This document shows, piece after piece, positions 24,711 to 56,171 of a stretch of 64,000 bases of DNA; within the stretch, counting starts at the first letter, position 1, and each line of letters starts with the position of its first letter. The stretch is from an uncultured Acidobacteriota bacterium (GTDB lineage: Bacteria > Acidobacteriota > Blastocatellia > RBC074), in contig OY969418.1 of NCBI GenBank assembly GCA_963699175.1, positions 7,325,352-7,389,351 of the forward strand. Direction: 5' to 3'. Under the pieces are notes generated by a model, which saw only the letters and a program-made list of their open reading frames with translations, was not told the DNA's origin and did not search any database. The position numbers were made by a program, and so were the translations under genes.

Positions 24711-25309
24711 AACCCTATTTGCAATTGAAGCGGAAACGGTCGGTTACTGTACCGCACCAAGGTTGCCTGTTCCAATTTAGATAGCTTGCGCTACGCTGGT
24801 GAGGCCAAAGCCCGGCCACTTTATCAAAAATACCATTGACCGGCTTGCGTCCGGCACACTAGAATTCGCCCGTATCAGCAGATCTACTCATAAAAAGATA
24901 GAACGTCGCGGTTGGCGAGCCGCTATTTGCCAAAGATTTGTTGATGCCCGTGCGTAGCCAAGCTTGGCACTGTTAGCTGTCATCTAGCCCCGGCCAGAAC
25001 CGGCTTTGTTTCGCGGTGCTGATAAGCGCTACGCCTCCTTCACAAGATTCGTCCGATTAGCCGATACCCGGCAGGCGCATCGCAGTAGGAACTCGTAGAG
25101 CAGAGAGGGTACGCCGAGGTATCGCCCCGAAATCATCCTTTCTTATCGGTCTTCTCAAAGACCCCGTTGAGAGCCACTCTGTTGTTGCCCCGCAATCATC
25201 GTGAGGTTTGAAATGATTGTGCGGAATCGAGCCGCGCCCCATCCGCAGTGGCGCGCACTCGCCGCCAGCAAGCACGTGTAGCGCATTTGCAACCAAATGG
25301 GAGTCCAAG

Positions 25310-28300
25310 ATGAAGAACTCGCGTCAAGCCGCTCAGTGGAGCGTCCGTAACAAATTTCAGCAACTTTTCCGCCGCTTCAAGCAGCGCCCGCTGCAATGGG
25401 GTGTTTGGGGAGCGCTCGTGTTGGTCGGCGCCGCGTGGCTGGGCAACGCCGCGTGGCAACACGTCGCAGCGCAGCAGGTGCAATTCAACATCAACACGGT
25501 GGTCGGCAGCAGCACCACTTCTGGCCTGGTCGCCGATCTGAAGAACGCGCGTGGCGTGGCGGCGGCCAGCGCCACAGTCTTTTACATTGCGGACACAGGC
25601 AATCACGTGGTGCGGCGCGTGGATACTACGACCAACAGTGTCACGGTTGTGGCCGGTCAAGTCGGCTTGGCGGCCACTGATCCACTTCTTGCCAACGGAG
25701 ACGGTGGCGCGGCGACCAGCGCACGCTTGCGCGAGCCGTATGATGTGGCGGTGGATGTTTCCGGCGATCTCTACATTTCCGACACGGGCACTCACAAAAT
25801 TCGCAAAGTGACATTGGGCAGCCAGCCCGGCAATCCTATTATCTCGACGATTGCAGGCAACGGTAATCCCGGCCTCGATACGGCGATTGCTGGCGCTAGC
25901 TTCAGCGACCCACGCGGCCTGACCTACAGTTCCGCTGGCAGTGGCACACTCTACGTCGCTGACTCGGCCAATCATCGAGTCGTTGCGCTCACGGGGCTGG
26001 CCACTCCAACACCTATTTTACAGCTCATCGCGGGCAACGGCTCTCCGGGTAGTGATGGCGACACCGGCCCTGCGGCGGTGGCTTTTCTCAATGGCCCGCG
26101 TGGCGTAGCCATAGACGCTACCAACCGCGTTTTTATTGCCGACACTGGCAACAATAAAGTCCGCGTCGTTACCACCATCAGCGGGAATTCTACGATTGAT
26201 ACTTACGCGGGCACGGGCACGCCGGGTTTCGACCAGGACGGCAACATGGCCAACACGAGTCAACTCAATGCGCCTTATGACGTAGTGGTGGACGGGGCCA
26301 ACGTTTATATCAGCGATAACGCCAATAATCGTATCCGCAGAGTTGATGGCGCAGGCTTCATCTCGACCGTCGCGGGGCGCAATGGGAGTGGTTTCAGCGG
26401 CGACGGCACGCCAGCGACGAATTTCACGCTCAGTTTTCCGAGCGGCATGGTCTTCGTCAGCAACAGCGTGGTCTTTATGGATACGGGCAACCGGCGGCTG
26501 CGGCGTGTGGCAGGGACATCGCTCACCACAATCGTGAGCGATGGCTCCGGCGGCTTTGCCGGTGAAAACGTAGCGGCGACACAAGCGCGGCTCGATGGCC
26601 CGTCGGCTATCACTGTGGATACGCAGGGCAACTGGTACATCGCCGACACCAACAACCAAGTCATCCGCAAGGTCAACGCCAGTGATGGCAAGATCAACAC
26701 GATTGCCGGTATGCCTGGCGTGGCTTCAACTGATCCGGTCGCTGCCAACGGTGACGGTGGCCAGGCGAACATGGCCACGTTCAAATCTCCGTCAGGTGTG
26801 GCGGTTGACGCAACCGGGAACATCTTCGTGGCCGATACTGGCAACAAGCGTATCCGCCGGATTGATCGCAACACCAACATTATTACTACGGTGATGGGCG
26901 TAGTTGGCAATGCGCTCATTGGCTTTGCGGGCATTCCAGCCTTGCTCGAGCCAATTGGTGTGGTGGTGGACAGTCAGAATAACCTTTACGTGTCGGATGC
27001 CTCACAGCACATCGTTATTGCGCAGAGCGGAGCCGTAACTCCAACCAAAGTCTTCATCGCAGGCAAGGCCAATATGCCCGGCGCCAGTGGTGATGGTGGC
27101 AATGCGGAGAACGCTCGGCTCAATCGTCCCACGGGCATTGCGCTAGCCGGCGGCATCCTCTACGTCGCCGACACCAACAATCATCGCATTCGCAAGATCG
27201 AAAACATCAACGGCATCTTCCAGATTTCCAGCCTCGTGCCGAAGAGTGCGGGCACCATTCAAATCGTCCCGCGTCCGGGTTTTGAAGGTGACGGCGGCAA
27301 CGCCGATTTCGCAAAGCTCAATTCGCCCACTGGCGTGGCCGTGGACAGCGCGGGCGCTCTTTATATCTCGGATCGCGGCAACAATCGCATCCGCCGCGTT
27401 GCTCCCGGCACTGACCCTTTGTCAGGTAATCCAGCGAATATCATCACTACCGTTATCGGCAACGGCGAAGTCGGCTTCAGCGGTGACGGCGGCCCGGCAA
27501 TAGCGGCAGCTTTGGGCTTGCCGCTTAATATTGGCGTGACCAGCACGGGCGAGATTTTGGTGGCCGATACCGGTAACAACCGCATTCGCCGGGCCGTGCA
27601 ACCGCCAAACGTCAAACCGACTTTGACCCACCCTGGCAACAAAAACACGACTGAGGGACAGGCGCTCGGTTTCACCTTGCAGGGCAGCGACTCGAACGCA
27701 GGGCAAACGCTGACTTATGCAATGAACTTTACCCCGGCACTCTCGCCATCAACTCCGGCGGAGAAAGTGCCCACACTCAATGCCGCAACGGGCGCATTCT
27801 CGTGGACGCCGGCGGCTGATGTGGCGAGCAGCGGTACGCCCTCGGTGCAATTCCAATTCACCTTTACTGTCACTGACAACGGCAGTCCGACGCTGACGAG
27901 CGATCCGGTGACGATCACCATCACGGTCAACAACACCAATGGCGCGCCGATCGTAAATGCCGGCACGATTCCGACCACGCTCGAAGCGACTGCGGCCAAC
28001 GGCGCGCAATTGCAGCTCAACGGCACGGCCACCGATCCCGATGGCGATACGCCGCTGGCCATCATCTGGACTGACACGCGTCCGGGCCAGTCAGCGGTGC
28101 AGATTGCCAACCAATTAAGCCCGACCGTCACGCTCGCGCTCGGTCAACATTCGCTTGTGCTGACTGCCAGCGACGGCAAGGGCGGCACGGCCAGCACGCC
28201 TGCCAAAGCGCTCACGGTGCAAGACACGACCGCGCCCGTCTTTTCAAACTTGCCGAGCAACATCAACGATACGATCACGTCGGGCAATAGCAAAGTGGTC

Positions 28301-30703
28301 AACTTCACGCTGCCGACCGCGACCGACGCAGTCTCCGGGCCGCGTCAAGTCACGGCCTCGCCGCCCTCCGGCTCGACCTTCCCGGTCGGCGCGACCACTG
28401 TGACCTTTTCGGCCAGTGACACCGCAGGCAACACGCGCACGGCGACGATTACGGTCACGATCACCTGCGTCGGCACTGGCTGCACAGGTGGCGGGCCTAA
28501 CCCGAACGCGATGGCTTTCACCATCTCAGCCTTCGCCGGCAACGGCAACTTCGGCGTAAGCGGCGACAACGGCACGGCGAACGCGGCAACTTTGAAAGAG
28601 CCGCGCGGCATAGCGATGGATGGCGCGAATAACGTCTACATCGCCGACCAGGAAGCGCACACCATCCGCCGCGTCAATGCGCAGGGCATCATCAGCCTCT
28701 TCGCGGGCAACGGCCAGAAAGGCTTCTCGGGCGACAGCGGCGCGGCGGCAAACGCGCGCTTCAACAATCCGACCGGTCTCGTCGTAGATGTGACGCGCAA
28801 CCTGCTCTACGTCGCCGACACCTGGAATCACCGCATCCGCCGGATTGATCTGGCCAACAACACGATCACGACGCTGGCCGGGAATGGCACGGCTGGCTTG
28901 GGCAGCGATGGCGCGGCAGGCAGCACGCCACTCAACTATCCGTCCGCCGTCGCGGTGGATGGCGCGGGTGTCGTCTACGTCGCCGACACCGGCAACAATC
29001 GCGTCGTCAAGATCAGCAGCAACACGCTCACAACCGTCGCGGGCAATGGCCAAGTCGGCAGCAGCGGCGACGGCGGCGCGCCCTTGCAAGCCAAGCTCAA
29101 TCATCCAACTGGCGTAGCCGTGACGACTGATGGCGCGACAATCTTCGTAGTGGATCGCGGTAACAATCGCGTGCGTAAGATTACTGCCAGCGCCATCACC
29201 AACTTTGCGGGCAATGGCACTGCTGCGAGCAGCGGTGACAACGGCCAGGCAACTGCCGCCAGTTTGAACGCGCCGACCGACGTAGCGGTGGATGGCTCCG
29301 GCAACGTCTTCATCACCGATACGGACGGCGAGCGCATCCGCAAGGTCAGCGCGAGCGACAACGTCATTATGACCATCGCGGGCAACGGCACGGCAGGCAA
29401 CGGCGGCGACGATGGCCCGGCGACCAGCGCCACGCTCAACACGCCGACGGCGCTCGTGCGCAACAGTTCGACCGGTGTGATCTTCTTCTGCGACACCGGC
29501 AATCTGCGCGTGCGCCGCTTGCTGCCAGTCGGGCCGACCAATCACACGCCGGTGCCCGATCAAGTGGCGAACATCCAGTTGACCAAGTCGCAGCAACTCA
29601 ATATCGGGCTATCGGCGACTGATTCTGATGGTGATCCGGTCACGTTCACGCTCGTGCCTGCGCTCTCCTTTGTCACGGTCACGAATGCGAACCCTGCCGC
29701 ACGCACGGCGACGCTCTTCATCAATCCGGCGGGCGGCAACGCGGGCGTCTACACCGTACGTGTGCAAGCCGCTGACAACAAAGGCGGCACTGGCCAGACG
29801 CCCGAATTCACCATTACCGTCACTGACCCGAGCGGCCCGACCAACAATCCGCCCACTGCAGTGATGAACATCTTGCCCTCGGTCATAACTGCTCCGAACG
29901 GCCAACAAACCGCTACTGTCAATCTCAACGGCACCAGTTCATCTGACCCGGACGGTGATCCGCTCACCTACGCCTGGTTTGATGGCGCAGCGGCGATTGC
30001 GACTGGGGCAACGGCGACCGTGCAGCTTGGGCCAGGCCCGCATGCAATCAAGCTGGTCGTGACTGACAGCAAGAATGCGACCGGCGCCAGCCCGACGCAA
30101 AACATCACAGTGCAGCTTGCCCAGGCTGGCAATAATCCTCCGACGGCGGTAATCAAGAATCTGCAAGCTTCGTATACGGCCACGAATGGTGCAAACGTAG
30201 TGGTCACGCTTGACGGTTCGGATTCGATGGATCCCGATGGCGATCCACTGTCCTTCAAGTGGTTCGATAACGGCACGGAGATAGCTAACGGTGTAACCCC
30301 GGCTGTCACGTTGGCGCTCGGCCAACACAGCATCAAGGTCCTTGTGAGTGATGATAAGGGCGCGAGTGCTGAGAGTGCATCGCAGACGGTCACAGTTACA
30401 GCTTCGCAGGGCGGGTCTGAACTGGACATCACCACCGTCTCGCCTGATTCCGGCAGGCGTGGTCAAACACTTACAATCACCGTGAATGGTCAAGGCTTCG
30501 TCCAGGGGTGTTCGGTCAGAATTTTCAAGGGCGGACTCCCAAGCCAGGTTGGCATCACGACCACGACTACCTTTATTTCGAGCACGCAACTGTCGGTGAA
30601 GGTGGTCATTTCGGAGCAAGCACAGGTAGGCGCGCGCATCGTCAGTGTCACCAATCCCGGTGGAGCAATGGTGCAGGCGAACGCTTTCTCGGTTTTGCAG
30701 TAG
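25310..30703 (+). CDS. giant (about 1800 aa) cell-surface protein with NHL repeats, HYR, PKD/Ig-like and IPT/TIG domains
   Basis: Start at MKNSRQ with GGGAG SD. N-terminal TM. More than 20 NHL-type repeats (YIADTGNHRIRKI-like). HYR-like segment (TTAPVFSNLP...ATITVTI). DPDGDPL PKD-like units. C-terminal IPT (ITTVSPDSGRRGQTLTITVNGQGF). Confidence 0.85.
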   Translation: MKNSRQAAQWSVRNKFQQLFRRFKQRPLQWGVWGALVLVGAAWLGNAAWQHVAAQQVQFNINTVVGSSTTSGLVADLKNARGVAAASATVFYIADTGNHVVRRVDTTTNSVTVVAGQVGLAATDPLLANGDGGAATSARLREPYDVAVDVSGDLYISDTGTHKIRKVTLGSQPGNPIISTIAGNGNPGLDTAIAGASFSDPRGLTYSSAGSGTLYVADSANHRVVALTGLATPTPILQLIAGNGSPGSDGDTGPAAVAFLNGPRGVAIDATNRVFIADTGNNKVRVVTTISGNSTIDTYAGTGTPGFDQDGNMANTSQLNAPYDVVVDGANVYISDNANNRIRRVDGAGFISTVAGRNGSGFSGDGTPATNFTLSFPSGMVFVSNSVVFMDTGNRRLRRVAGTSLTTIVSDGSGGFAGENVAATQARLDGPSAITVDTQGNWYIADTNNQVIRKVNASDGKINTIAGMPGVASTDPVAANGDGGQANMATFKSPSGVAVDATGNIFVADTGNKRIRRIDRNTNIITTVMGVVGNALIGFAGIPALLEPIGVVVDSQNNLYVSDASQHIVIAQSGAVTPTKVFIAGKANMPGASGDGGNAENARLNRPTGIALAGGILYVADTNNHRIRKIENINGIFQISSLVPKSAGTIQIVPRPGFEGDGGNADFAKLNSPTGVAVDSAGALYISDRGNNRIRRVAPGTDPLSGNPANIITTVIGNGEVGFSGDGGPAIAAALGLPLNIGVTSTGEILVADTGNNRIRRAVQPPNVKPTLTHPGNKNTTEGQALGFTLQGSDSNAGQTLTYAMNFTPALSPSTPAEKVPTLNAATGAFSWTPAADVASSGTPSVQFQFTFTVTDNGSPTLTSDPVTITITVNNTNGAPIVNAGTIPTTLEATAANGAQLQLNGTATDPDGDTPLAIIWTDTRPGQSAVQIANQLSPTVTLALGQHSLVLTASDGKGGTASTPAKALTVQDTTAPVFSNLPSNINDTITSGNSKVVNFTLPTATDAVSGPRQVTASPPSGSTFPVGATTVTFSASDTAGNTRTATITVTITCVGTGCTGGGPNPNAMAFTISAFAGNGNFGVSGDNGTANAATLKEPRGIAMDGANNVYIADQEAHTIRRVNAQGIISLFAGNGQKGFSGDSGAAANARFNNPTGLVVDVTRNLLYVADTWNHRIRRIDLANNTITTLAGNGTAGLGSDGAAGSTPLNYPSAVAVDGAGVVYVADTGNNRVVKISSNTLTTVAGNGQVGSSGDGGAPLQAKLNHPTGVAVTTDGATIFVVDRGNNRVRKITASAITNFAGNGTAASSGDNGQATAASLNAPTDVAVDGSGNVFITDTDGERIRKVSASDNVIMTIAGNGTAGNGGDDGPATSATLNTPTALVRNSSTGVIFFCDTGNLRVRRLLPVGPTNHTPVPDQVANIQLTKSQQLNIGLSATDSDGDPVTFTLVPALSFVTVTNANPAARTATLFINPAGGNAGVYTVRVQAADNKGGTGQTPEFTITVTDPSGPTNNPPTAVMNILPSVITAPNGQQTATVNLNGTSSSDPDGDPLTYAWFDGAAAIATGATATVQLGPGPHAIKLVVTDSKNATGASPTQNITVQLAQAGNNPPTAVIKNLQASYTATNGANVVVTLDGSDSMDPDGDPLSFKWFDNGTEIANGVTPAVTLALGQHSIKVLVSDDKGASAESASQTVTVTASQGGSELDITTVSPDSGRRGQTLTITVNGQGFVQGCSVRIFKGGLPSQVGITTTTTFISSTQLSVKVVISEQAQVGARIVSVTNPGGAMVQANAFSVLQ

Positions 30704-43472: not shown

Positions 43473-45281
43473 CTACTTAATCCTGATTCGCAAAACATTC
43501 GTTAGCTTGCCTTCTACCGCTACAGCAAAATCTACTTGCCCGTAACTCTTCAGCATGTGGGGTAGGCGCACGTTGACTTGATCCAAGCCCGCCAATCCCT
43601 CCACCGCACCGGCAAAAAGCACGGGAACTTCAACGTCGCTGACCTGCGCGCTGACCACTTCAAGCGAGCGGCGATTGCGCAGTCCGGTGCCATACGCGAT
43701 CAGAAAGACCTGTTCCCCTCCGTCGTATAGATCAATTGGAGCGCTGACGAATTGATTACCCTGCCGCACAGCCAATGGTTCATAGACCTGCGTGCCATCT
43801 GCTTTGATGCGCAAGAGAACAGCCGCCGGAACTCCGCTTCCATTGGCATTGGCCGCAAAGAGCGCGGGTGCAACCGGCTCAATCGTCACTGTGCCGCTGG
43901 CGAGCCTGCCAGTCGCATTCGTCACGATCACTGTCGCCGGGCCTGGGGCGACACCGGCGGGCATTAAGTAATTGATCTGTTCCGGCGAAACGAAGAAGAG
44001 CGGGGCGAAGAAATCTTTGTTCGTACGGTCGCGCACCGTTACCGTCGTGCCCGCCAAATTGATAGGCAGCGGCAGCGTGGCTGCTTCCGCGTGTGCGGCC
44101 AGTTCGGTACCGAAGGCGGCAACGATAGAATCGCTTGCTAGCGCCCCGCTGGTGAAACTCGCCGCCGACACACTCGCCAACGCTGCCGCGCCGCCCAGCA
44201 ATTCTTTTACGTTCGCGCGTAGGCTCGGAAACAGCGAATAGAGCGCATCGCCCGGACATTCGGTCGGACTCGGTCCGTCGCGGTGGCCAGAGATGTTGTT
44301 CAACTCCAGGCCCGACGCCGTATGGCGCGACTGGCCCAGCGGGTCAATCGCGCGCTGACTGGATTTCCACGCCAGGATGCGGCGCAAGCTGGTCAAAGCT
44401 TTTTCCGCCGGTGTCACGTCGGTGAACGTGCCGATCATCGAGACGCCCATCGTCCCGGCGTTGACGCTACTGAAATGCGCGCCCAACACGTTATCGCCGC
44501 CTGCACGCCCTTCGTAGATTACGCCGTCCGGGTCAATCAGATAGTTATAGCCGATGTCTGCCCAGCCGTTCGTAAAGATGTGAAAGTTCCAGATGCTGCG
44601 CACCACCGCCGCCCAATCATTATTGGTCGCTGTATTGCCAGTCGCCGTGTGATGCACGATCAGATGCGTCACCGTCGTGTAGCTCAACGCGCCGTGCGTC
44701 GTCACTTGTCCGTCAGGGCAGCCCCACTCGGTGCGCGTGACGACAGAGGGTTTGGGATAATTTGGCAAAGCCTGTTCATTGCTCATGGTTTCTGATTGTT
44801 TGGCGCGGATGCGATCCAGCATCGTGCGCGTTGTTGCGCCAGGGCTGATGAAATGAAAGCGCAAACTTCTAGTCGCAGGCAAGAGGTCTCCCGGCTTAGC
44901 GCCACTCAGGCGAAATTCAATCAAGCGCGTCCGCGCGTCCAGCAAAGCCAGATTGCTGACGAGTATGCCTGCTTCAACTGTCGCGTCTTGATTGAATGGC
45001 AAAACAAACCACTCACTCCAGCCTGCGCCATCAACTGAAGTGCGCAGGCTCAACTGTGATTTAGCCTCAGCTACGCCTGATGAATGCCAAGTTACACCCA
45101 AGGCCAAAAAGGGTTCAGCTTTTTCAAGCGGCACGTCGAGCACGGCGGAGAAACTCGCGCGGCTCGTACTTGAAAAAGTGATTGTGCTGTGCCGAACCTC
45201 CGGCGCTCTGACAGGCTGTTGTGCTAGAATATGCGCCGAAAGCAGCACGAGAGACAGACTGACCCACAGAATTGCTTTCAT
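43473..45281 (-). CDS. N-acetylmuramoyl-L-alanine amidase (Amidase_2/PGRP) domain protein with Solibacter-type C-terminal domain
   Basis: Signal peptide. [11 protein letters not shown]...[16 protein letters not shown]...GHRD...CPGD amidase_2 motifs. C-terminal FAANANGSG...[19 protein letters not shown]...LRIRIK. Confidence 0.8.
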
Positions 45282-46464: not shown

Positions 46465-46865
46465 GAATATAAGAGCGAGAGTAGCTATAGAATTCAAGAA
46501 ATTGAGCATCAGCAACATTGAGACAGGGACAGTAGACAGAATTGACAAGCTTTTCCAGGATTGGTCAATGGTGATAGGTCGCTCGCTTGCTTTCATCCTG
46601 CACAATTCTGTCAATCCTGTCCAAATGTTTTGTGGCTTGATTTAGACAGGATTGCTGACTGCGTTCGGTTGGAATACGGCAAGCCTTGAGCTGGCGCGGC
46701 AACGGCCAACCATCGAGAGTTACTTCAGCAAGCGCGAGCCAGAGATTCTCTGGCTCGCGCTCCATTTTGCTCCTTCCGTTTCGCTTCTTTAGCGGCTAGA
46801 CTGCGGCCTGCGGAAATCGGCCATTAAAATATCAAGTCTTGGGCCGTTCACTAGAAGGAATAACG

Positions 46866-48974
46866 ATGAAGGTGCGCCTACTTATTTCACTTGTTCTGGT
46901 TTGTGCGACGCTGTTCCTAGTCGGCGAATCAATCTATTCGAACACGCCACTGCCGCAAGCCAGTCAATCAACAGCGCAGCGCAAAATCGCGCCGTGGGTA
47001 CTGGAGCGCACTGCCGACGGCAAGCAAGCCGAGTTTCTCGTCATCCTCGCTGACAAGGCCGACTTGAGCGGCGCAAAAGAGTTTCAGACCAAGCGTGAGA
47101 AAGGGCGTTTTGTACGCGACGCGCTTTTCGCCAAAGCGCAACAGACGCAAGCGCCGCTGCTCGCCTGGCTGCGTGCGCGCGGCATCGCACATCGTTCGTT
47201 CTACATCGTCAACGCAATCTGGGTCAGAGCCACGCGCGCCACCATGCTTCAGATCGCCGCGCGTGCCGAGGTCGCGCGCATCGAAGGCAATCCGAGAATT
47301 CGCAACCTCGAACCCGTCAAGCCGACTGAAGCAGAACTGCAAGCGGCGCTCAACGCCGTCGCGGCTCCGCAGGCCATCGAGCTGGGCGTGACCTACATTC
47401 GCGCGCCGGAAGTCTGGGCGCAGGGCTTCACTGGTCAAGGCATCGTCATCGGCGGCGCGGACACGGGCGTTAAGTGGGATCATCCGGCGCTCAAGAATCA
47501 TTATCGCGGTTGGAACGGCTCGTCAGCCGATCACAACTACAACTGGCATGACAGTATTCATTCGGGCGGCGGGTTGTGCGGACCGAACTCGCCGACCCCA
47601 TGCGATGACGACGTTTCCTCCCCTAATCATGGCACGCACACGCTCGGTACGGCGGTGGGCGATGACGGCGGCACTAATCAGATCGGCGTCGCACCCGGCG
47701 CAAAATTCATCGCCTGCCGCAATATGGATCGTGGCAATGGCACGCCTGCAACCTACATCGAATGCATGGAGTGGTTTCTCGCGCCTTATCCGGTGGGTGG
47801 CAATACGTCGCAGGGCGATGCGTCCAAGTCGCCCGACATCACAACCAACTCGTGGGGTTGTCCACCTTCAGAGGGCTGCGCGCCCGGTACGCTGCAAACC
47901 GCCATCGAAGCGCAACGCGCCGCCGGCATTATGACCGTAGTCGCAGCGGGCAATAGCGGTTCGGCCTGCTCAACTGTGGTAGACCCGCCCTCACTTTACG
48001 ACGCGGCCTACACCATCGGCGCGATTATTTCGGGCGCTGGGACGATTGCTTCATTCAGCAGTCGCGGCCCGGTGACGATTGACGGCAGCAATCGGCGCAA
48101 GCCCGACATCACTGCGCCCGGCGTAGGCGTGCGTTCTTCGGTGGGCAGCAGTAGCTATACATCTTTAAGCGGCACTTCAATGGCCACGCCACACGTGGCC
48201 GGCGCGATAGCCTTGCTCTGGTCGGCGCACACTGAGTTGCGCCATCAAATCACTGCCACCGAGGACATCCTAAACGAGGCCGCGGTGGATGTTGCCAGCA
48301 CTTTGTGTAGTAGTAGCGGCGTCCCGAACAATGTGTATGGCTTCGGACGATTGGACATCAAAGCCGCAGTGGATTTGGCAGCGGCTTTGGTGCTGAGAAT
48401 TGACAGTGTGACGCCACCAGCAGGGCGAACTTTAGGTGGGCAGCCGATCAAGTTGGCAGGGGCATTCGCCAACTTATTGAGTGTGACGGTGGGTGGAAAC
48501 TCCGCCACCTGGGACTACACTAATGGGCCGAGCGATACAAGCATGATTACTGTCACTACGCCAGCACACGCCGTTGGAGCCGTTGATATAGTTCTGACGC
48601 CAAACTCGGGCAGTCCTTATACCAGGACTGCCGCCTTCGCCTATCTGCCGACCAGCTTCACTGACGACACGCTGGTAGTGGGCGAGACGACGGTCAAAGT
48701 CCAACACCTTCTCGAACTGCGTCAGGCGGTGGACGCTTTGCGCGTAGTCGCCGGATTTGGGCCAGCGACCTGGACTGATCCCACGTTGTCGTCCACGATC
48801 ACTATAATTAAGGCCGTGCATATTACCGAGTTGCGGACAAACTTGGAGAACGTCGCGCTGTCGCTCGGCTACTCCGCTGTAGCATACATTGACCCAATGC
48901 TCAGTGGTGGTTTTGTGATCAAGCAGGTACACATTGAGGAACTACGCCAGCGCATTCGAGCTATCGCTGGCTGA
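46866..48974 (+). CDS. secreted subtilisin-like serine protease (S8) with C-terminal IPT-like plus conserved HIxELR-repeat module
   Basis: Signal peptide. Catalytic D (GADTGV), H (HGTHTLGTAVG), S (GTSMATPHVAGA). Last about 190 aa nearly identical to the metalloprotease C-terminus. Confidence 0.9.
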   Translation: MKVRLLISLVLVCATLFLVGESIYSNTPLPQASQSTAQRKIAPWVLERTADGKQAEFLVILADKADLSGAKEFQTKREKGRFVRDALFAKAQQTQAPLLAWLRARGIAHRSFYIVNAIWVRATRATMLQIAARAEVARIEGNPRIRNLEPVKPTEAELQAALNAVAAPQAIELGVTYIRAPEVWAQGFTGQGIVIGGADTGVKWDHPALKNHYRGWNGSSADHNYNWHDSIHSGGGLCGPNSPTPCDDDVSSPNHGTHTLGTAVGDDGGTNQIGVAPGAKFIACRNMDRGNGTPATYIECMEWFLAPYPVGGNTSQGDASKSPDITTNSWGCPPSEGCAPGTLQTAIEAQRAAGIMTVVAAGNSGSACSTVVDPPSLYDAAYTIGAIISGAGTIASFSSRGPVTIDGSNRRKPDITAPGVGVRSSVGSSSYTSLSGTSMATPHVAGAIALLWSAHTELRHQITATEDILNEAAVDVASTLCSSSGVPNNVYGFGRLDIKAAVDLAAALVLRIDSVTPPAGRTLGGQPIKLAGAFANLLSVTVGGNSATWDYTNGPSDTSMITVTTPAHAVGAVDIVLTPNSGSPYTRTAAFAYLPTSFTDDTLVVGETTVKVQHLLELRQAVDALRVVAGFGPATWTDPTLSSTITIIKAVHITELRTNLENVALSLGYSAVAYIDPMLSGGFVIKQVHIEELRQRIRAIAG

Positions 48975-49200: not shown

Positions 49201-51807
49201 ATGAGCAAACGTTTCAATCACCCCCGTTACCTTTCATTGCGCAAAACTCTCTTCTGGTTTGTCTGCGCGCTCTTCATCTTCACACTGATCGCAGCCGTAC
49301 TTTCTATTCGGAATACTCAAGCGTCAGCGCAAACCAATGCCCAATCCTCTGACGGGGTATGGAAATTCATAGCAGAATCTTCGATCATCGTCAGAGGTGA
49401 GCGATTGATTATCCCGCAGGTTTATCAGACAGCGCAGGTCAACGAAGCGGCCTTAAGACAACTACTGGATAAAGCCCCACTGGAATTCACGCAGGAAGCC
49501 AAGGACAACAGGATAACGCTCGCGTTGCCTCTGCCTGATGGCCGCTTCTCCACCTTCCGCATTGAAAAATCACCTATTATGGAACCGGGGCTGGCGGTTA
49601 AATTTCCTGAAATCAAAACCTATCGCGGGCAGGGGGTTGACGACCTAACGGCCACGGTTCGTTTTGATTTAACTCCTGCCGGTTTTCACGCGCTGATTCT
49701 GGCGGAACGTGGCTCGATTTTTATTGATCCTTATTCAAAAGGCGATACGGCAAATTACATAATTTATTTCAAAGCCGATTACCGCAATGACGACAAATCA
49801 TTTCAATGTTTCTTTGAAAACCCTGGCCGACCGCCGCGCAGAACTAATCAGCCCGCCGCGCCCAATGTTGTGAATGGCGCGACGCTGCGCACCTATCGTC
49901 TGGCTTTGGCTGCGAACGGCGAATACACCATGACCAAGGGCGGAACAGTTGCGGGAGCGTTGTCAGCGATGACGACGACGATGAATCGCGTAAATGAAGT
50001 TTATGAACGAGAGCTGGCGGTTCGCCTGATACTTGTCGCCAATGAGGACTTGATTATTTACACGAACGCCGCGACCGACCCGTACTCGAACTCGAACGGC
50101 TTCCTAGCCTTGAACCAGAACCAGGCGAATCTGGATGTGGTCATTACCAGCGCGAACTACGACATCGGGCACGTCTTTACGACAGGCAGCGGCGGGGTTG
50201 CCGGCTTGGAAGTGGTTTGTGTGAGCGGAGTAAAAGCCCAAGGCACCACTGGTCTTTCTGATCCGAGCGGCGATGTCTTTGCCATAGATTATGTGGCGCA
50301 CGAGATGGGGCATCAATTTGGCGGCAACCACACGTTTAATGGAACGACCAGCAACTGTGGCGGCGCCAACCGTGAACCTTCTGCCGCTTATGAGCCTGGC
50401 AGCGGTTCAACGATTATGGCTTACGCAGGTATCTGCGGCGCGCAAAACCTGCAATCAAACAGTAACGATTATTTTCACGTGAAGAGCCTGGAAGAGATTG
50501 GCGCCTTCATTGCATCAACTACTTGTGATCAGGAAACCAGCACAGGCAACACTGTGCCAACCGTGAGCGCGGGAGCAACGGTGACCATCCCTAAAGGCAC
50601 TCCCTTTACTTTGACGGCTACCGGTAACGATGCCAATGGCGATGCGATAACTTATTGCTGGGAAGAATATGATTTGGGAGATGCTTCACCACCGGATAAT
50701 GATGCGGATGGGATCGCCAGACCGATCTTCCGCTCGTTTAATCCAACCACAAATCCTTCGCGTACCTTTCCAAAACTTTCCGATCTGTTAAACAACACAT
50801 CAACTATTGGCGAAGTCCTGCCGGCGATCACCCGCACCATGAATTTCCAAGTTACGGTTCGTGACAATCGTGCTGGCGGAGGCGGTATCAATACAGCTAC
50901 GAAGCAAGTTATTGTCAACGCAACTACCGGGCCTTTTTTAGTAACACAACCAAATACGGCAGTAACTTGGGCTGCCGGAAGCCAACAGACAGTTACCTGG
51001 AATGTAGCAGGCACTACTAACGCTCCTGTGAGCGCAGCTAATGTCAAGATTTCATTTTCAACCGATGGCGGCAATACTTTCCCAACAGTGCTGATTGCCA
51101 GTACCCCCAATGACGGGTCAGAGAATATTACTGTCCCTAATACGCCAACCTCTACGGCGCGCATTAAAATAGAGGCGGTCGGTAACATCTTTTTCGACAT
51201 ATCCAATGTCAACTTTACCATCGGCGCTGCCACAACACTGGCAATTAACAGCGTCATCCCGCCCGCCGGGCGTATTTCCGGCGGACAACCAGTCAAGATA
51301 GCTGGCATATTCCCTAACTCATTTACCGTGACAGTGGGCGGCGTCTCCGCCAACTGGGTCTTCTCTAGCGGCATGAGCGAGATTACTGTCACTACCCCGG
51401 CCCACGCCGTCGGGGCTGTTGATATAGTTTTGACGCCAACTGCGGGCAGCCCCTACACCAAGGCCAACGCCTTCGGCTATTTGCCGATCAGCTTCACTGA
51501 CGACACGCTGGTGGTGGGCGAGACGACGGCTAAGGCGCAACACATCCTTGAACTGCGGCAGGCGGTGGACGTTTTGCGCGCGGTCGCGGGACAGGGGGCT
51601 GCGGCTTGGAGTGATTCTACGCTCACCCCCACCAGCACGCTGATCAAGGCGGCGCACATTACCGAGTTGCGGACGAATTTTGAGAGCGTCGTAGCGACGC
51701 TCGGCTATTCTCCCGGAACATATACTGACCCGACGCTCAGTGGTTTGGTGATCAAGCGAGTACACATCGAAGAATTGCGCCAGCGTATTCGGGCCATTGC
51801 GGGCTGA
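49201..51807 (+). CDS. secreted zinc metalloprotease (metzincin, HExxHxxGxxH) with the same C-terminal module as the S8 protease
   Basis: N-terminal TM/signal. VAHEMGHQFGGNHTF. Same C-terminal module as the S8 gene. Confidence 0.75.
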   Translation: MSKRFNHPRYLSLRKTLFWFVCALFIFTLIAAVLSIRNTQASAQTNAQSSDGVWKFIAESSIIVRGERLIIPQVYQTAQVNEAALRQLLDKAPLEFTQEAKDNRITLALPLPDGRFSTFRIEKSPIMEPGLAVKFPEIKTYRGQGVDDLTATVRFDLTPAGFHALILAERGSIFIDPYSKGDTANYIIYFKADYRNDDKSFQCFFENPGRPPRRTNQPAAPNVVNGATLRTYRLALAANGEYTMTKGGTVAGALSAMTTTMNRVNEVYERELAVRLILVANEDLIIYTNAATDPYSNSNGFLALNQNQANLDVVITSANYDIGHVFTTGSGGVAGLEVVCVSGVKAQGTTGLSDPSGDVFAIDYVAHEMGHQFGGNHTFNGTTSNCGGANREPSAAYEPGSGSTIMAYAGICGAQNLQSNSNDYFHVKSLEEIGAFIASTTCDQETSTGNTVPTVSAGATVTIPKGTPFTLTATGNDANGDAITYCWEEYDLGDASPPDNDADGIARPIFRSFNPTTNPSRTFPKLSDLLNNTSTIGEVLPAITRTMNFQVTVRDNRAGGGGINTATKQVIVNATTGPFLVTQPNTAVTWAAGSQQTVTWNVAGTTNAPVSAANVKISFSTDGGNTFPTVLIASTPNDGSENITVPNTPTSTARIKIEAVGNIFFDISNVNFTIGAATTLAINSVIPPAGRISGGQPVKIAGIFPNSFTVTVGGVSANWVFSSGMSEITVTTPAHAVGAVDIVLTPTAGSPYTKANAFGYLPISFTDDTLVVGETTAKAQHILELRQAVDVLRAVAGQGAAAWSDSTLTPTSTLIKAAHITELRTNFESVVATLGYSPGTYTDPTLSGLVIKRVHIEELRQRIRAIAG

Positions 51808-51838
51808 GGTAACGGGTCAGTAAGAGGCTGTTTTTGCC

Positions 51839-53719
51839 ATGCAATTTTTCGATTACTTGGTTTGGTCGCTCGCCCATTTCCTGGTCTGGGCATTGATGCT
51901 ACTGGCAGCCTTTAGTTTGGGCAGTCTAGGAACGTTTTTCATGCGCCCACAGCCTTATCAGTCGTTACTTGAAAGGCTCGTATTTACTGTCGCCTTGGGG
52001 TTGGGTTTATGGGCATCGCTGATCTTCGCACTAGGCTTGGTCGGCGCGATTTATGCCCCGCTGCTCTGGTTGCTGACGGTTATTATCGCGTTCAGGCAAG
52101 TGCTCGCTGTGCTGCCACGGCTTCGGCAGATCAACGTTGAAAACCTGCGCGACTGGTTGCATAAGCTGCGTTCGGCCACTGCTGTGCCAGTGTGGTTGTT
52201 ACTGGTGGTGCTAGGCTACGTGGCGATCCCGCTCAGGCTAACACAGTATCCGCCGATTCAATGGGACGCGGTTGGCAATCATCTCGTGGTGGCGCGCGAG
52301 TATTTGTTGACGCATCGTCTAGCTCTTTATCCAGGTGTGGCGCAGCCCGTGCTGCCAGCGCTCAACCACCTACTTTTCACCTGGGCAATGGCCTTGCTCG
52401 ACGACCTGGTCGCACAATTAATCGAATTCACTTTTTTGATGCTGACGGCGGTCGGTTTGTATCTCTGGGGGAGGCGGGAGAACCGCGAGCTACTGGGACT
52501 GGCCGCCGGGGCGCTGTGGCTGGCCCATCCGCTAGTGTTGCAGCTCGGCGCAAGCGCCTACATTGACGTGGGACTGACTTGCTATGTCTTTCTGGGTTTG
52601 TACGCGCTCCGTGTTTTTGCTGAAAGTCGTGAAGCACAATGGCTCGCGTTGGCCGTCGCTCTGCTCGGAATGGCTGCTGGCTCGAAGATGACGGGGCTGT
52701 TCTTTTTCGGGTTAGGGACGCTCCTCGGCCTGTGGCTGGCTTGGCGTGCGCGCTTAGGTTGGACGGCGCTGGCGAAAGCGTGCGTGATTGGCGGGTTGGT
52801 GGCCGCGCCGTGGTACGGACTGATTGCCTATCACACGGGCAATCCGGTTTGGCCCTTTTTTCCGCAATGGAGTCGCAGTCAATTGATCGGTGGCGAAATG
52901 TCCCAGGCGACCATTAGCGGCTTTATGTCCGGAGTCGGAGGTGAGAAGACTTGGCTCAACTTCCTCAAGCTTCCTTACAATTTGCTGCGGCGGCAGGAGC
53001 TTTTTTTCAAGGACGACAATCGGGGCTACTGGGGAATTATTGCCTTGTGGCCGGTGGCCTTGCTCGCCCTCATCTGGCGGCGTTCTGAATGGTGGCGAGC
53101 CGCAGGCTGGTGGGCTGCTTGGACGCTGGCCTATACCCTATTCTGGTACGCGACGGCGTCGTATTTGCGCTATTTGTTACCCGTCGTTCCGTTAATGGGG
53201 CTGGTTTTGTATGAGTCAATTGATTATGGATTGAACCGCGCAGATCGAGCGGGGACTTGGCGCCGGATGTTCTGGATAGTCATGACATTGGCCATGCTGG
53301 GATTGAGTCTACCTTTGATCGCGCGGAGTGGCAGGGGGCTGGGTCATTTGCCGCCAACCAATGCTGCGGCGCGCCAGTCATATCTCAATCGAGTCGGCTA
53401 TCGCGGTGTGCAATATATAAATGAACACGCCCAGGCGACCGATAAGGTTTTTATCTTGAATGGCAACTATCTGACTTATTACTTAAAGCCGCGCGTAGTC
53501 GGATTCGGTTGGGTGGAGATTGACCCAAACGGCAAGTCTTCAATTCGGTCGGTAGACACCCGTTGGCTGAGGAAAGTGGAAGAAGAGCAGGTGAACTGGA
53601 TCATCTTGCAGCACGAAGGGCTTACTGCATCGCCAGACAGCCCATTCGCCAGCCCCGACGGCCCGCGGTTTGAAAGGGTCTACAGCGATGAGCGGTCTTA
53701 TGTTTATCGTCGAATGTAA
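51839..53719 (+). CDS. polytopic membrane protein, GT-C-fold glycosyltransferase-like (ArnT/PMT-like), putative
   Basis: About 12 predicted TM helices in the first 420 aa, then a soluble C-terminal domain. Periplasmic loop WDAVGNH. 31-nt gap after the metalloprotease gene. Family assignment tentative. Confidence 0.45.
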   Translation: MQFFDYLVWSLAHFLVWALMLLAAFSLGSLGTFFMRPQPYQSLLERLVFTVALGLGLWASLIFALGLVGAIYAPLLWLLTVIIAFRQVLAVLPRLRQINVENLRDWLHKLRSATAVPVWLLLVVLGYVAIPLRLTQYPPIQWDAVGNHLVVAREYLLTHRLALYPGVAQPVLPALNHLLFTWAMALLDDLVAQLIEFTFLMLTAVGLYLWGRRENRELLGLAAGALWLAHPLVLQLGASAYIDVGLTCYVFLGLYALRVFAESREAQWLALAVALLGMAAGSKMTGLFFFGLGTLLGLWLAWRARLGWTALAKACVIGGLVAAPWYGLIAYHTGNPVWPFFPQWSRSQLIGGEMSQATISGFMSGVGGEKTWLNFLKLPYNLLRRQELFFKDDNRGYWGIIALWPVALLALIWRRSEWWRAAGWWAAWTLAYTLFWYATASYLRYLLPVVPLMGLVLYESIDYGLNRADRAGTWRRMFWIVMTLAMLGLSLPLIARSGRGLGHLPPTNAAARQSYLNRVGYRGVQYINEHAQATDKVFILNGNYLTYYLKPRVVGFGWVEIDPNGKSSIRSVDTRWLRKVEEEQVNWIILQHEGLTASPDSPFASPDGPRFERVYSDERSYVYRRM

Positions 53720-53859
53720 GCGTGGGAATGGCCTCGGCAGGGTGGATTTGAAGACTGCTGCGATTGCAAGTTGAAGATTGGTCTTTATAATTTGCAGCCG
53801 GTTGGTTGTGTACATTCACCCATTGATTGCACCATATTGATTGCCGAGGAAGCGACTTC

Positions 53860-55461
53860 ATGCCATCTCCCAACGCGAAAGTGCCGAAAGTTTTTATCAG
53901 CTATAGCCACGATTCGCACGTGCAGCTTGACCGCGTGCTGGCGCTGGCCGACCGGCTGCGCGCAGAAGGGATTGATTGCAACCTTGATCAATATGAATCC
54001 ACGCAGCCGCAACGCTGGCCAAGTTGGATGAACGAACAGTTCCGTGCCGCTGATTTCATCCTGGTTGTCTGTACTGAGATTTATTGCCGTCGCTTCGAGG
54101 GGCGTGAAGAGTCGGGCAAAGGCATGGGCGCGAAATGGGAAGGCGCAATCATTACCAGCGAATTGTACCGGGATGAAACGCTCAATCGGCGCTTCATCCC
54201 AATTATCTTTGCTGCCGAAGATGCCGCACAAGTGCCGGAACAATTGCGGGATTACACGCGCTATCTGGTGACGGACGAGCAGGGCTACGAAGCGCTTTAC
54301 CGACGCCTGACCAAGCAGCCGCGCGTGGTCAAACCGCCGCTCGGACAGGTGCAGACATTCGAGCCGGTCAATAAGCTGAACGCCTTGCCCGACGAGAACC
54401 GGCAACAGGAGTTTCCAGTGATTGAAGCGGAAGTCGCTCACCCATCTTCACATCAGAGTGTCGCCACACTCACTCCATCGCTAGTTACTGAACCTGTTAG
54501 AGCGCCAGTCAAAGAACCGGAGACGCCCTGGCAAGAACAACACGACAAGGTTGAAGTGAAGAACCCAACCCGTCAGCTAGCGCCACTAAGCAGCCGGCGC
54601 AGAAGACTGATCTTAGCAAGCGGCGTATTGGTGATGGGGTTGGCAATCGCAGTAGCTTCCAGCCTGTTGTACAAAAGCAATTCGGTTGTGACTGACAATC
54701 GCAGCCCGACGCCGACAGTTGCCTCACCCAGCCCAGTGGCCAAAGCGACTTTGCGATCATTCACTGCTGATCTCGGCAACGGCGTGAAGCTGGAGATAGT
54801 CGCGTTGCCAGGCGGCACGTTTGAGATGGGGTCGGACAATGGCACGATTGATGAGAAGCCGAAACACAAAGTGACGCTCTCACCCTTTGCCATCGGCAAA
54901 TACGAAGTGACGCAGGCGCAGTGGCAAGCCGTGATGGGCAACAATCCGAGCTACTTCAAAGGCGATAACTTGCCGGTGGAAAGAGTTTCGTGGCTCAATG
55001 TCCAAAAGTTTATTGAGAGGCTCAAGCTCAAGACCGGCAACCAGACTTATTGCTTGCCGACCGAAGCCGAGTGGGAGTACGCGGCGCGCGCCGGTTCGAC
55101 CGGCAAGTACAGCTTCGGCGACGATGCAGCCAAGCTCGGCGAGTATGCTTGGTTTAGGGGAAACTCCGGCGCCAAGACGCATCCCGTTGGGCTAAAGAAG
55201 CCAAACGATTGGGGCTTATATGATATGCAGGGCAATGTATCGGAGTGGTGCCAGGATTGGTACAGCAAGGATTACTACGAGCAAAGTGTGAACAGCACTA
55301 ATCCGCGAGGGCCATCATCAGGCGAGTATCGCGTCCTGCGTGGCGGCCCGTGGTTCATCAACATTGATGATGCGCGCCCCGTCTACCGCGGCTTCTACAA
55401 TCCCGGCGACCGCGACATCAGTGTGGGTTTTCGGGTGGTGGTGGCGCGTTCTCCTTCCTGA
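53860..55461 (+). CDS. TIR-domain - TM - FGE/SUMF1-domain protein (receptor-like architecture)
   Basis: Start ATG 53860 with SD GAGGAAG. N-terminal KVFISYSHDS...FILVVCTE (TIR_2-like). One TM (LILASGVLVMGLAIAVASSLLY). C-terminal FGE domain (YCLPTEAEWEYAARAG, NVSEWCQDWY, LRGGPW). Confidence 0.8.
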   Translation: MPSPNAKVPKVFISYSHDSHVQLDRVLALADRLRAEGIDCNLDQYESTQPQRWPSWMNEQFRAADFILVVCTEIYCRRFEGREESGKGMGAKWEGAIITSELYRDETLNRRFIPIIFAAEDAAQVPEQLRDYTRYLVTDEQGYEALYRRLTKQPRVVKPPLGQVQTFEPVNKLNALPDENRQQEFPVIEAEVAHPSSHQSVATLTPSLVTEPVRAPVKEPETPWQEQHDKVEVKNPTRQLAPLSSRRRRLILASGVLVMGLAIAVASSLLYKSNSVVTDNRSPTPTVASPSPVAKATLRSFTADLGNGVKLEIVALPGGTFEMGSDNGTIDEKPKHKVTLSPFAIGKYEVTQAQWQAVMGNNPSYFKGDNLPVERVSWLNVQKFIERLKLKTGNQTYCLPTEAEWEYAARAGSTGKYSFGDDAAKLGEYAWFRGNSGAKTHPVGLKKPNDWGLYDMQGNVSEWCQDWYSKDYYEQSVNSTNPRGPSSGEYRVLRGGPWFINIDDARPVYRGFYNPGDRDISVGFRVVVARSPS

Positions 55462-55665: not shown

Positions 55666-55947
55666 ATGGCGACTATCCAGAAAATCCGGCAGAAAATTAT
55701 TGATCGGGCTTACTACCTCTCCTCGCATGCTGAAGAGGAAATGGCAGCGGATGGATTCGAGCGTGCTGATGTGGAACAGGCGATTTGTAAAGGACGGATC
55801 GAAAAGAGACTGACGCAGGATGAGCGTGGCACGCGCTACCGTATCGAAGGGCCAGCCAAAGATGGTAGGATGATGCAGGCCCTTTGCCGCTTCGGGGCGG
55901 ACAGCGATCTGGTGATCATTACGGTTTACGCTTTAACGGAGAAATGA
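55666..55947 (+). CDS. DUF4258-family protein (toxin-like)
   Basis: 93 aa. Family-like AYYLSSHAEEEMAADGF...ADVEQAI. Stop overlaps the next start (ATGA). Confidence 0.6.
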   Translation: MATIQKIRQKIIDRAYYLSSHAEEEMAADGFERADVEQAICKGRIEKRLTQDERGTRYRIEGPAKDGRMMQALCRFGADSDLVIITVYALTEK

Positions 55948-56171
55948 TGATTTGCGAATTCTGCGGTGGGCAGACTGCTTTACGAAAAGTCAGGAAACAA
56001 CATTGGCTCGGCGGTAAACTCTACCTCGTGGAGAATGTCGAAGCTGCGGTCTGCACTGAGTGCGGCGAGCGTTACTTTCACGCGACGGTGTTGGATCAGA
56101 TAGACGAGATGTTGAAGGCCGAGCATCTGGTTAAAGAGCATCTTTCGGTCGAAGTGGTGAGCTTTGCGTGA
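55944..56171 (+). CDS. YgiT-type zinc-finger protein (MqsA N-domain-like antitoxin)
   Basis: MMICEFCGG...AAVCTECGERYF (CxxC...CxxC). Confidence 0.65.
   Translation: MMICEFCGGQTALRKVRKQHWLGGKLYLVENVEAAVCTECGERYFHATVLDQIDEMLKAEHLVKEHLSVEVVSFA

Follow-up and report, generated by a model that had tools for sequence, protein, structure and literature searches.

The 64,000-nucleotide stretch analyzed here (the window) comes from an uncultured Acidobacteriota bacterium of the Blastocatellia (contig OY969418.1, positions 7,325,352 to 7,389,351) and hosts two adjacent protease genes that share a C-terminal cassette. The first gene (46839..48974, + strand) encodes a secreted subtilisin-like protease of 711 amino acids. 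The protein matches the Pfam model Peptidase_S8 over residues 199-503 (143.5 bits, E = 1.1e-41) and bears the catalytic Asp, His and Ser motifs DTG208, HGTH264 and GTSMATP445, which together assign it to the S8 family of subtilases. Translation probably begins at the Met in position 10, ahead of a stretch that resembles a signal peptide. Just 5' of the gene lies a strong terminator-like hairpin (46731..46761, + strand; 14-bp stem with 10 G-C pairs, then a T-run), which suggests that the S8 gene opens a new transcription unit. The second gene (49201..51807, + strand) encodes a metzincin of 868 amino acids with an N-terminal signal or anchor stretch. This protein matches Reprolysin_4 over residues 228-429 (120.1 bits, E = 1.3e-34) and contains the zinc motif HEXXHXXGXXH, in the form HEMGHQFGGNH at residue 367, and thus belongs to the M12B, or reprolysin-like, metzincins.

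When the two whole proteins were aligned with BLASTP, a single strong segment of similarity emerged (residues 495-711 of the S8 protease and 645-868 of the metzincin; 63% identity over 228 columns, E = 5e-81); the proteins do not resemble each other outside this C-terminal segment. The two enzymes are otherwise unrelated and have a C-terminal module in common, as a sequence-only reading of the window had proposed, and the measured onset of the similarity (around nucleotide (nt) 48390 in the S8 gene and nt 51238 in the metzincin gene) falls within about 10 nt of the module boundaries proposed there (48400..48974 and 51230..51807). From these points the similarity extends to both stop codons, defining a cassette of about 190 residues, and both proteins share the C-terminal end VHIEELRQRIRAIAG. 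A codon alignment of the two cassettes gives identities of 71% at the protein and 75.6% at the DNA level. The strong similarity is thus real, although the earlier figure of about 80% nucleotide identity was slightly high, and describing the copies as near-identical or almost the same sequence was too strong, given that 71% protein identity is the average of the family. Both tblastn and a six-frame scan with a profile hidden Markov model (HMM), run with filters off, returned exactly two cassette copies in the window and no third one.

The cassette is composed of two parts. Its first 85 residues or so form an immunoglobulin (Ig)-like domain of the IPT/TIG type, and the remaining 106 residues constitute what we call the tail. 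In the metzincin, the IPT/TIG domain (residues ~680-763; 51238..51489, + strand) scores above the gathering threshold of the Pfam TIG model (PF01833; 23.9 bits, E = 4.3e-5, threshold 20.9 bits), and the tblastn match of the first copy begins at its first nucleotide. In the S8 protease, the corresponding IPT/TIG-like beta-sandwich (residues ~518-605; 48390..48653, + strand, starting at the onset of similarity to the second copy) scores just below the threshold (18.9 bits) and is 60-79% identical to IPT parts in relatives. The model spans only these first ~85 residues of the cassette. The tail follows at residues 606-711 of the S8 protease (48654..48971, + strand; profile HMM E = 6e-47) and at residues 764-868 of the metzincin (51490..51804, + strand; E = 4e-46). 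The similarity between the two genes is not confined to the IPT part, since the alignment covers the tail, which is the more conserved of the two at the DNA level (77.8% identity, as compared to 73.0%). This two-part anatomy, with a tail of about 106 residues that contains three putative H-x-x-E-L-R helices, agrees with what had been read from the sequence.

Each tail comprises three copies, in tandem, of a unit of about 38 residues whose consensus is [FWY]-T-D-(D/P)-x-L-x-x-G-x-T-x-I-K-A-x-H-I-x-E-L-R. With tblastn the repeats map to 48657..48770, 48771..48884 and 48885..48971 in the first copy and to about 51493..51606, 51607..51720 and 51721..51804 in the second (all + strand), and single repeats match the others with E-values between 2e-5 and 5e-4. 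In a set of 113 homologues with only 35-77% identity to the query, every E-L-R keeps its Arg without exception, and the His, Glu and Leu of each repeat, together with its F/W/Y-T-D start, are more than 90% conserved. AlphaFold2 was run twice independently, on 30 and on 113 sequences, and returned the same model (mean predicted local distance difference test score 80, predicted template modelling score 0.75). It consists of three helices of 17, 17 and 15 residues (tail positions 16-32, 54-70 and 91-105) that recur with a 38-residue period and are linked by extended loops of about 20 residues. Taken together, conservation and model indicate that the tail is a conserved domain in its own right. 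The regular recurrence of equal helices suggests that this domain packs as a single-chain bundle with pseudo-threefold symmetry. The end of the protein is amphipathic (...HIEELRQRIRAIAG), with no hydrophobic or membrane-spanning segment, and the final residues vary across the family (IAG, AIE, AIW, SLP).

We looked for a known identity of the tail among domain models, structures, mobile elements and the literature. It has no match in Pfam or NCBIfam at E ≤ 0.1, and a comparison of 23 diverse tails with Pfam (E ≤ 10) and PHROGs (E ≤ 1) returned only scattered chance matches, none of them to SLH, dockerin, CWB2, PAAR or sorting domains. These searches bear out the expectation that no well-known sorting domain, or other domain model, would account for the tail. 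The individual candidates were rejected accordingly: SLH (PF00395) for want of both a model match at E ≤ 10 and a fold match in the PDB; dockerin (PF00404) because Dockerin_1 has no match at E ≤ 10 and the lone weak hit, in one of the 23 tails, is to the unrelated polyketide synthase 'Docking' model; and PAAR because its model has no match at E ≤ 10. CW_binding_2, PG_binding and LysM are likewise without match to the tails even at E ≤ 10. A profile search of the PDB gave a best E-value of 0.51, which is chance level, and Foldseek searches with the tail model gave a best E-value of 2.3 in the PDB and only uncharacterized phage proteins in BFVD (best A0A8S5VH47, template modelling score 0.68, E = 0.57), which are uninformative on function. 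A phage or plasmid origin was also rejected, as tblastn found no match in 50,697 phage and 72,556 plasmid records. In the literature on the motif and on acidobacterial C-terminal domains we found nothing relevant.

The tail is nevertheless far from rare. An exhaustive HMMER profile search over 1.84 billion cluster representatives (clusters at 50% identity) returned 7,097 representatives at E ≤ 1e-3, 5,127 at E ≤ 1e-10 and 510 at E ≤ 1e-30. More than 7,000 clusters thus form a family that Pfam, NCBIfam and PHROGs do not model and for which no structure has been solved. Among members with named sources, the close subfamily, which ends in ...EELRQRIRxIAG, is almost wholly restricted to Acidobacteriota, mainly the class Blastocatellia and the family Pyrinomonadaceae, with a few members in Vicinamibacteria and Thermoanaerobaculia; one distant member occurs in Rokubacteria. 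Several copies of the tail are found per genome bin. We rejected the existence of small stand-alone tail proteins, because the short matches derive from larger genes that are fragmented on short or frame-shifted contigs. On two long ENA contigs (L036 and L037), the genes around distant tail carriers are split into many short pieces, probably owing to frameshifts in long-read assemblies, and these fragmented gene calls explain why the protein search returned only short 'stand-alone' tail proteins there.

To describe the anatomy of the carriers, we relied on the 141 newly returned proteins among the 150 best profile matches, which range from about 100 to 3,000 residues. In 126 of them (89%) the tail lies within five residues of the C-terminus. 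The remaining 15 (~11%) bear it N-terminally or internally, in arrangements such as IPT-tail-PKD-TTR, tail-Flg_new_2-Amidase_2 and M10-Big_9-tail-PKD, and therefore the tail functions away from a free C-terminus. Two tails are present in six carriers. The Pfam domains detected in the 66 full-length carriers are diverse (TIG in 33, PPC in 9, BACON in 7, RHS in 6, S8 in 5 and reprolysin in 5, in addition to Kelch, BNR/sortilin, laminin-G, CarboxypepD_reg and others), no Pfam model covers the tail itself in any of the 66, and IPT/TIG is the domain that most commonly precedes it directly. A crude test detected a signal- or anchor-like N-terminus in 63 of the 108 carriers that start with Met. As far as sequences can tell, the tail is a widely shared accessory domain of extracellular proteins, usually placed behind an Ig-like spacer.

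The gene neighborhood of the tail provided a further lead. We clustered all open reading frames of 35 loci that had been found through the tail alone, and in 18 of them one non-cassette family occurs directly 3' of the last cassette gene and on the same strand. Where both gene ends were called (15 loci), the gap between the two genes measures 60-194 nt in 13 cases, and the genes overlap by 4 nt in the other two. Cassette genes often form runs of two or three ahead of this neighbor. Genes for the neighbor itself lie at L016:6436-8028, L014:2982-5183, L011:6407-8182 and L110:1092-3254, with others in further related loci, all outside the window. The neighbor, which is secreted and 530-730 residues long, combines G-N-V-G-I-G-T-x-x-P-x-x-K-L-D-V repeats in varying number, a C-terminal domain of 175 residues (NIAAKYQDVAEWV...HRPGTIIGKALEPL...LSLQ) that is highly conserved and has no family match, and a variable N-terminus, which is FlgD-Ig-like in some members and reads QWTTPDANQNINN... 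in others. Its repeat region, and only this region, matches solved fibers of Bdellovibrio (Bd2133, 8ond, E = 3.8e-8; 8oml, E = 4e-3). Bd2133 and Bd1334 are trimeric 'mosaic adhesive trimer' (MAT) fibers on the Bdellovibrio cell surface (PMC10769870). The neighbor resembles them in its G-x-V-G-I-G-T beta-helix repeat region and in being secreted, and differs from them in its 175-residue C-terminal domain and FlgD-Ig-like N-terminus, which match neither structure. We refer to it as fiber-like.

The association was recovered also in the opposite direction. We searched metagenome contigs with the C-terminal domain of the fiber-like protein only and kept the best 80 loci. These contain 50 tails, all 50 on the strand of the fiber gene, and 40 of them lie in the gene that directly adjoins it (25 upstream and 15 downstream). 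Overall, an adjacent tail gene is present in 39 of the 80 loci, many of which lie on short contigs. We read nine of the genes downstream of the fiber gene (among them those at L058, L086, L087, L104-L107 and L110), and all encode a signal peptide or membrane anchor, then an fn3-type stretch and then a tail near the N-terminus; Pfam fn3 was confirmed in the two that were scored. In eight of the nine a large body follows the tail, either glyoxal/galactose-oxidase-like, multicopper-oxidase-like or RHS-like. One fiber-adjacent protein, of 278 residues, is composed of a membrane anchor, an fn3-like stretch and the tail only. In both gene orders, the end of the gene that codes for the tail faces the fiber gene.

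These data allow an evaluation of whether the tail directs export. A folded C-terminal domain could guide proteins across the outer membrane or attach them to it, following the logic of the C-terminal domain of the type IX secretion system (T9SS) and perhaps being removed after export. The terminal position in 89% of the carriers, the great diversity of these carriers with their Sec-type N-termini and the several paralogs per genome would be consistent with such a signal. This explanation is nonetheless improbable, since the tail is N-terminal or internal in about 11% of its carriers and in all nine of the fiber-downstream genes that were read, its last residues are variable, it has no membrane-spanning segment, it matches neither Por_Secre_tail nor PEP-CTERM nor any other NCBIfam sorting model, and the tail genes of the 35 loci showed no conserved neighbor coding for a transporter or sortase. 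The T9SS domain itself (Por_Secre_tail, TIGR04183) is a beta-sandwich, and it was rejected because its model has no match and the predicted fold of the tail is helical. In a sortase-type signal, a short motif precedes a membrane-spanning helix at the C-terminus and a basic cluster. Signals of the sortase or exosortase type (LPXTG, PEP-CTERM, GlyGly-CTERM) were rejected as well, with no NCBIfam sorting model matching at E ≤ 0.1. Read as a signal of this kind, the sorting tag suggested from the sequence finds no support, given the amphipathic final helix and the members that bear the tail elsewhere in the protein. A module that is usually terminal and yet usable at either end of a protein argues against an obligate C-terminal secretion or sortase signal and in favor of a binding module.

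We propose that the cassette is a mobile two-part unit, in which the IPT/TIG beta-sandwich would act as a spacer and the three-repeat tail of 106 residues would have no catalytic role and serve as an attachment handle, by which an extracellular structure would retain secreted enzymes and, in relatives, toxins and oxidases as well. The parts of this proposal do not carry equal weight. That the tail is a non-catalytic extracellular accessory module is very probable. An attachment or docking function, which is the favored reading and agrees with the anchoring role considered from the sequence, comes close to an even chance, without quite reaching it. The candidate partner is a trimeric fiber of the Bdellovibrio MAT type, and it is the best candidate because the fiber gene directly adjoins tail genes in related Blastocatellia, in both directions of search and on the same strand; this identification, drawn from gene neighborhood, is tentative. 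More doubtful still is the most specific version, in which the tail, as an adaptor with pseudo-threefold symmetry, would mount many different secreted enzymes and toxins (proteases, oxidases, RHS proteins) on MAT-like trimeric surface fibers, giving rise to 'enzyme-armed fibers' of soil Acidobacteriota.

Two known systems illustrate how such docking could work. The first is PAAR, which sits on the trimeric VgrG spike of type VI secretion. Like the tail, PAAR is a single chain with three internal repeats, is fused to widely differing cargo, RHS proteins among them, at the N- or C-terminus, and is encoded beside the gene of a trimeric beta-helical fiber or spike, although the neighbor of the tail only resembles solved trimeric fibers. 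By analogy, the geometry of a monomeric tail with three equivalent repeats would suit a position on the threefold axis of a trimeric partner. The capping of VgrG by PAAR is known, whereas for the tail it is a hypothesis. PAAR is also a beta-structure, the tail is predicted to be helical, and the two have no sequence similarity at E ≤ 10. Moreover, tail carriers have Sec signal peptides and hence are not cargo of type VI secretion. The second system, which could provide an alternative mode of docking, is the dockerin-cohesin pair of the cellulosome. Dockerin is likewise a small terminal module of repeated loop-helix units found on many secreted enzymes, and attachment to a scaffold protein encoded nearby is a possible further likeness. 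In contrast to the tail, dockerin has two calcium-binding repeats of about 22 residues, with no Dockerin_1 match to the tail, and the candidate partner of the tail is a trimeric fiber rather than a cohesin array.

Attachment does not necessarily imply a fiber. The tail might instead bind a glycopolymer of the cell envelope or matrix non-covalently, and its proximity to fiber genes would then reflect a common location at the surface. Exoenzymes and the Rhs toxin WapA are kept at the cell surface by triple modules of the SLH or CWB2 type, and the resemblance in layout is close: three tandem repeats at the ends of exoenzymes, with a pseudo-threefold unit in both SLH and CWB2, are matched here by three tandem repeats in a terminal position behind an Ig-like spacer on secreted hydrolases. 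In WapA the repeats precede the RHS repeats, and some tails lie in the N-terminal part of RHS-type proteins or before a peptidoglycan amidase. On the other hand, the repeats of the tail are shorter (about 38 residues, with one helix each), its hosts are diderm Acidobacteriota, and it matches neither the models of SLH, CW_binding_2, PG_binding and LysM nor any structure in the PDB. A glycopolymer anchor would also leave unexplained the strict pairing with a directly adjacent fiber gene on the same strand. On balance, we consider it unlikely.

Alternatively, the tail may have no external partner at all, and may assist the folding, stability or self-association of its carrier as an intramolecular chaperone or oligomerization domain. 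The H/E/L/R pattern of each helix could make an internal salt-bridge or metal network, and some carriers have two tails, both of which would fit. However, the tail occurs on unrelated folds, which in other organisms fold in its absence, and a stabilizing role would not explain the neighborhood of fiber genes, which makes this an account of low probability.

Several observations also weigh against docking on fibers. There is no fiber gene in the window (tblastn E ≤ 1; HMM E ≤ 0.01) or at two loci of distant family members, and the link may therefore be limited to a Blastocatellia subfamily, or may reflect co-regulation rather than contact. No fusion of the tail with the C-terminal domain of the fiber-like protein is found among the 141 carriers. 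About half of the fiber loci have no adjacent tail gene, though many of the contigs are too short to judge. In addition, the conserved His, Glu and Arg could be purely structural, the pseudo-threefold packing is suggested by the periodicity of a model, and the argument that the tail binds anything is one from anatomy and gene neighborhood.

The gene that follows the proteases in the window bears on a different proposal, namely that the tail is a glycosylation tag. A polytopic membrane protein of the GT-C/PMT_2 type (51839..53719, + strand) is encoded 31 nt downstream of the metzincin stop codon (51807 to 51839), as had been noted from the sequence. It is assigned to this type by a score above the Pfam threshold for PMT_2 (28.2 bits, cut-off 26.1) and by its topology, with eight hydrophobic segments, three of them overlapping, in a simple hydropathy scan; it has no relative in the PDB by sequence. 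The short gap, with no convincing terminator between the metzincin gene and this one, and the PMT_2 match would be compatible with an enzyme that modifies the tail. However, we detected no homologue within 6-8 kb of the 35 tail loci or the 80 fiber loci (tblastn, 1e-5), and the S8 orthologs and the M12 relative have other downstream genes. With no homologue at any of the 115 related loci, the adjacency appears peculiar to this genome, and the link to the module that had been suspected for the glycosyltransferase-like gene, and with it glycosylation of the tail, is left with no comparative support. The tail is also predicted to be folded and helical, not Ser/Thr-rich and disordered. Glycosylation by this enzyme is therefore very improbable.

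To understand how two unrelated proteases acquired the same cassette, we compared 37 cassettes from the window and from 35 genome loci, in 666 pairs. At the protein level the pair in the window is ordinary (71% identity, rank 186th; mean of all pairs 69%). At silent sites it is among the closest, with a synonymous divergence (dS) of 0.78 that ranks 12th, as compared to a median of 2.14; these values refer to only about 190 codons, were obtained with the Nei-Gojobori method and may be affected by the codon usage common to one genome. The catalytic part of the S8 protease is 84% identical in protein to its orthologs at three loci (L001, L013 and L017), with dS of 0.81-1.06, whereas the cassettes of the same orthologs differ more from the S8 cassette of the window (dS of 1.4-2.0, 68-74% identity). 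At silent sites, the S8 cassette is thus nearer to that of the adjacent metzincin than to those of its own orthologs. The same pattern is detectable for a pair of neighboring cassettes at another locus (L003, dS = 0.41). This lower divergence from the neighbor than from the orthologs' cassettes supports the occurrence of module exchange between genes, through cassette replacement or gene conversion within a lineage. Exchange had indeed been suspected before, and as a recent event; the exchange itself finds support here, but a divergence of 24% in DNA and an ordinary protein identity do not speak for a recent one.

The window contains other genes that we recorded in passing. A gene at 43473..45281 (- strand) encodes a secreted protein of 602 residues, in which an Amidase_2 domain (N-acetylmuramoyl-L-alanine amidase) is combined with a long C-terminal extension unmatched in Pfam; Amidase_2 is also present in one distant tail carrier (P0202). 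At 25217..30703 (+ strand) lies the gene for an extracellular protein of 1,828 residues with teneurin-type NHL repeats and HYR, cadherin-like and PKD domains, which bears no tail. Beyond the glycosyltransferase-like gene, 53827..55461 (+ strand) encodes a protein of 544 residues with N-terminal TIR_2/SEFIR domains (E = 3e-13 and 4e-15), a hydrophobic segment in the middle and an FGE-sulfatase-type domain at the C-terminus (E = 2.5e-49), an unusual fusion that might be a signaling or defense protein. Two small overlapping open reading frames at 55666..55947 and 55884..56171 (+ strand; 93 and 95 residues, the second with paired CxxC motifs) give the impression of a toxin-antitoxin pair.

A definition of the tail domain would annotate thousands of proteins that are now 'hypothetical'. 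Among the new leads, the association with MAT-like fiber genes is the most useful, and the gene neighborhood, being recovered in both directions, makes the idea of docking on fibers directly testable with two recombinant proteins. Should the tail dock on fibers, it would represent a new mode of enzyme display at the surface of diderm bacteria, and the compact tag of 106 residues and its partner would offer a pair for protein engineering. In soil, Acidobacteriota rank among the most abundant bacteria, and the hydrolases they secrete are important to the turnover of carbon and nitrogen; to our knowledge, little has been established on how these enzymes are held or deployed. If enzyme-armed fibers exist in these bacteria, they would constitute a display system that is similar in logic to cellulosomes or PAAR-tipped spikes and is built from unrelated parts.

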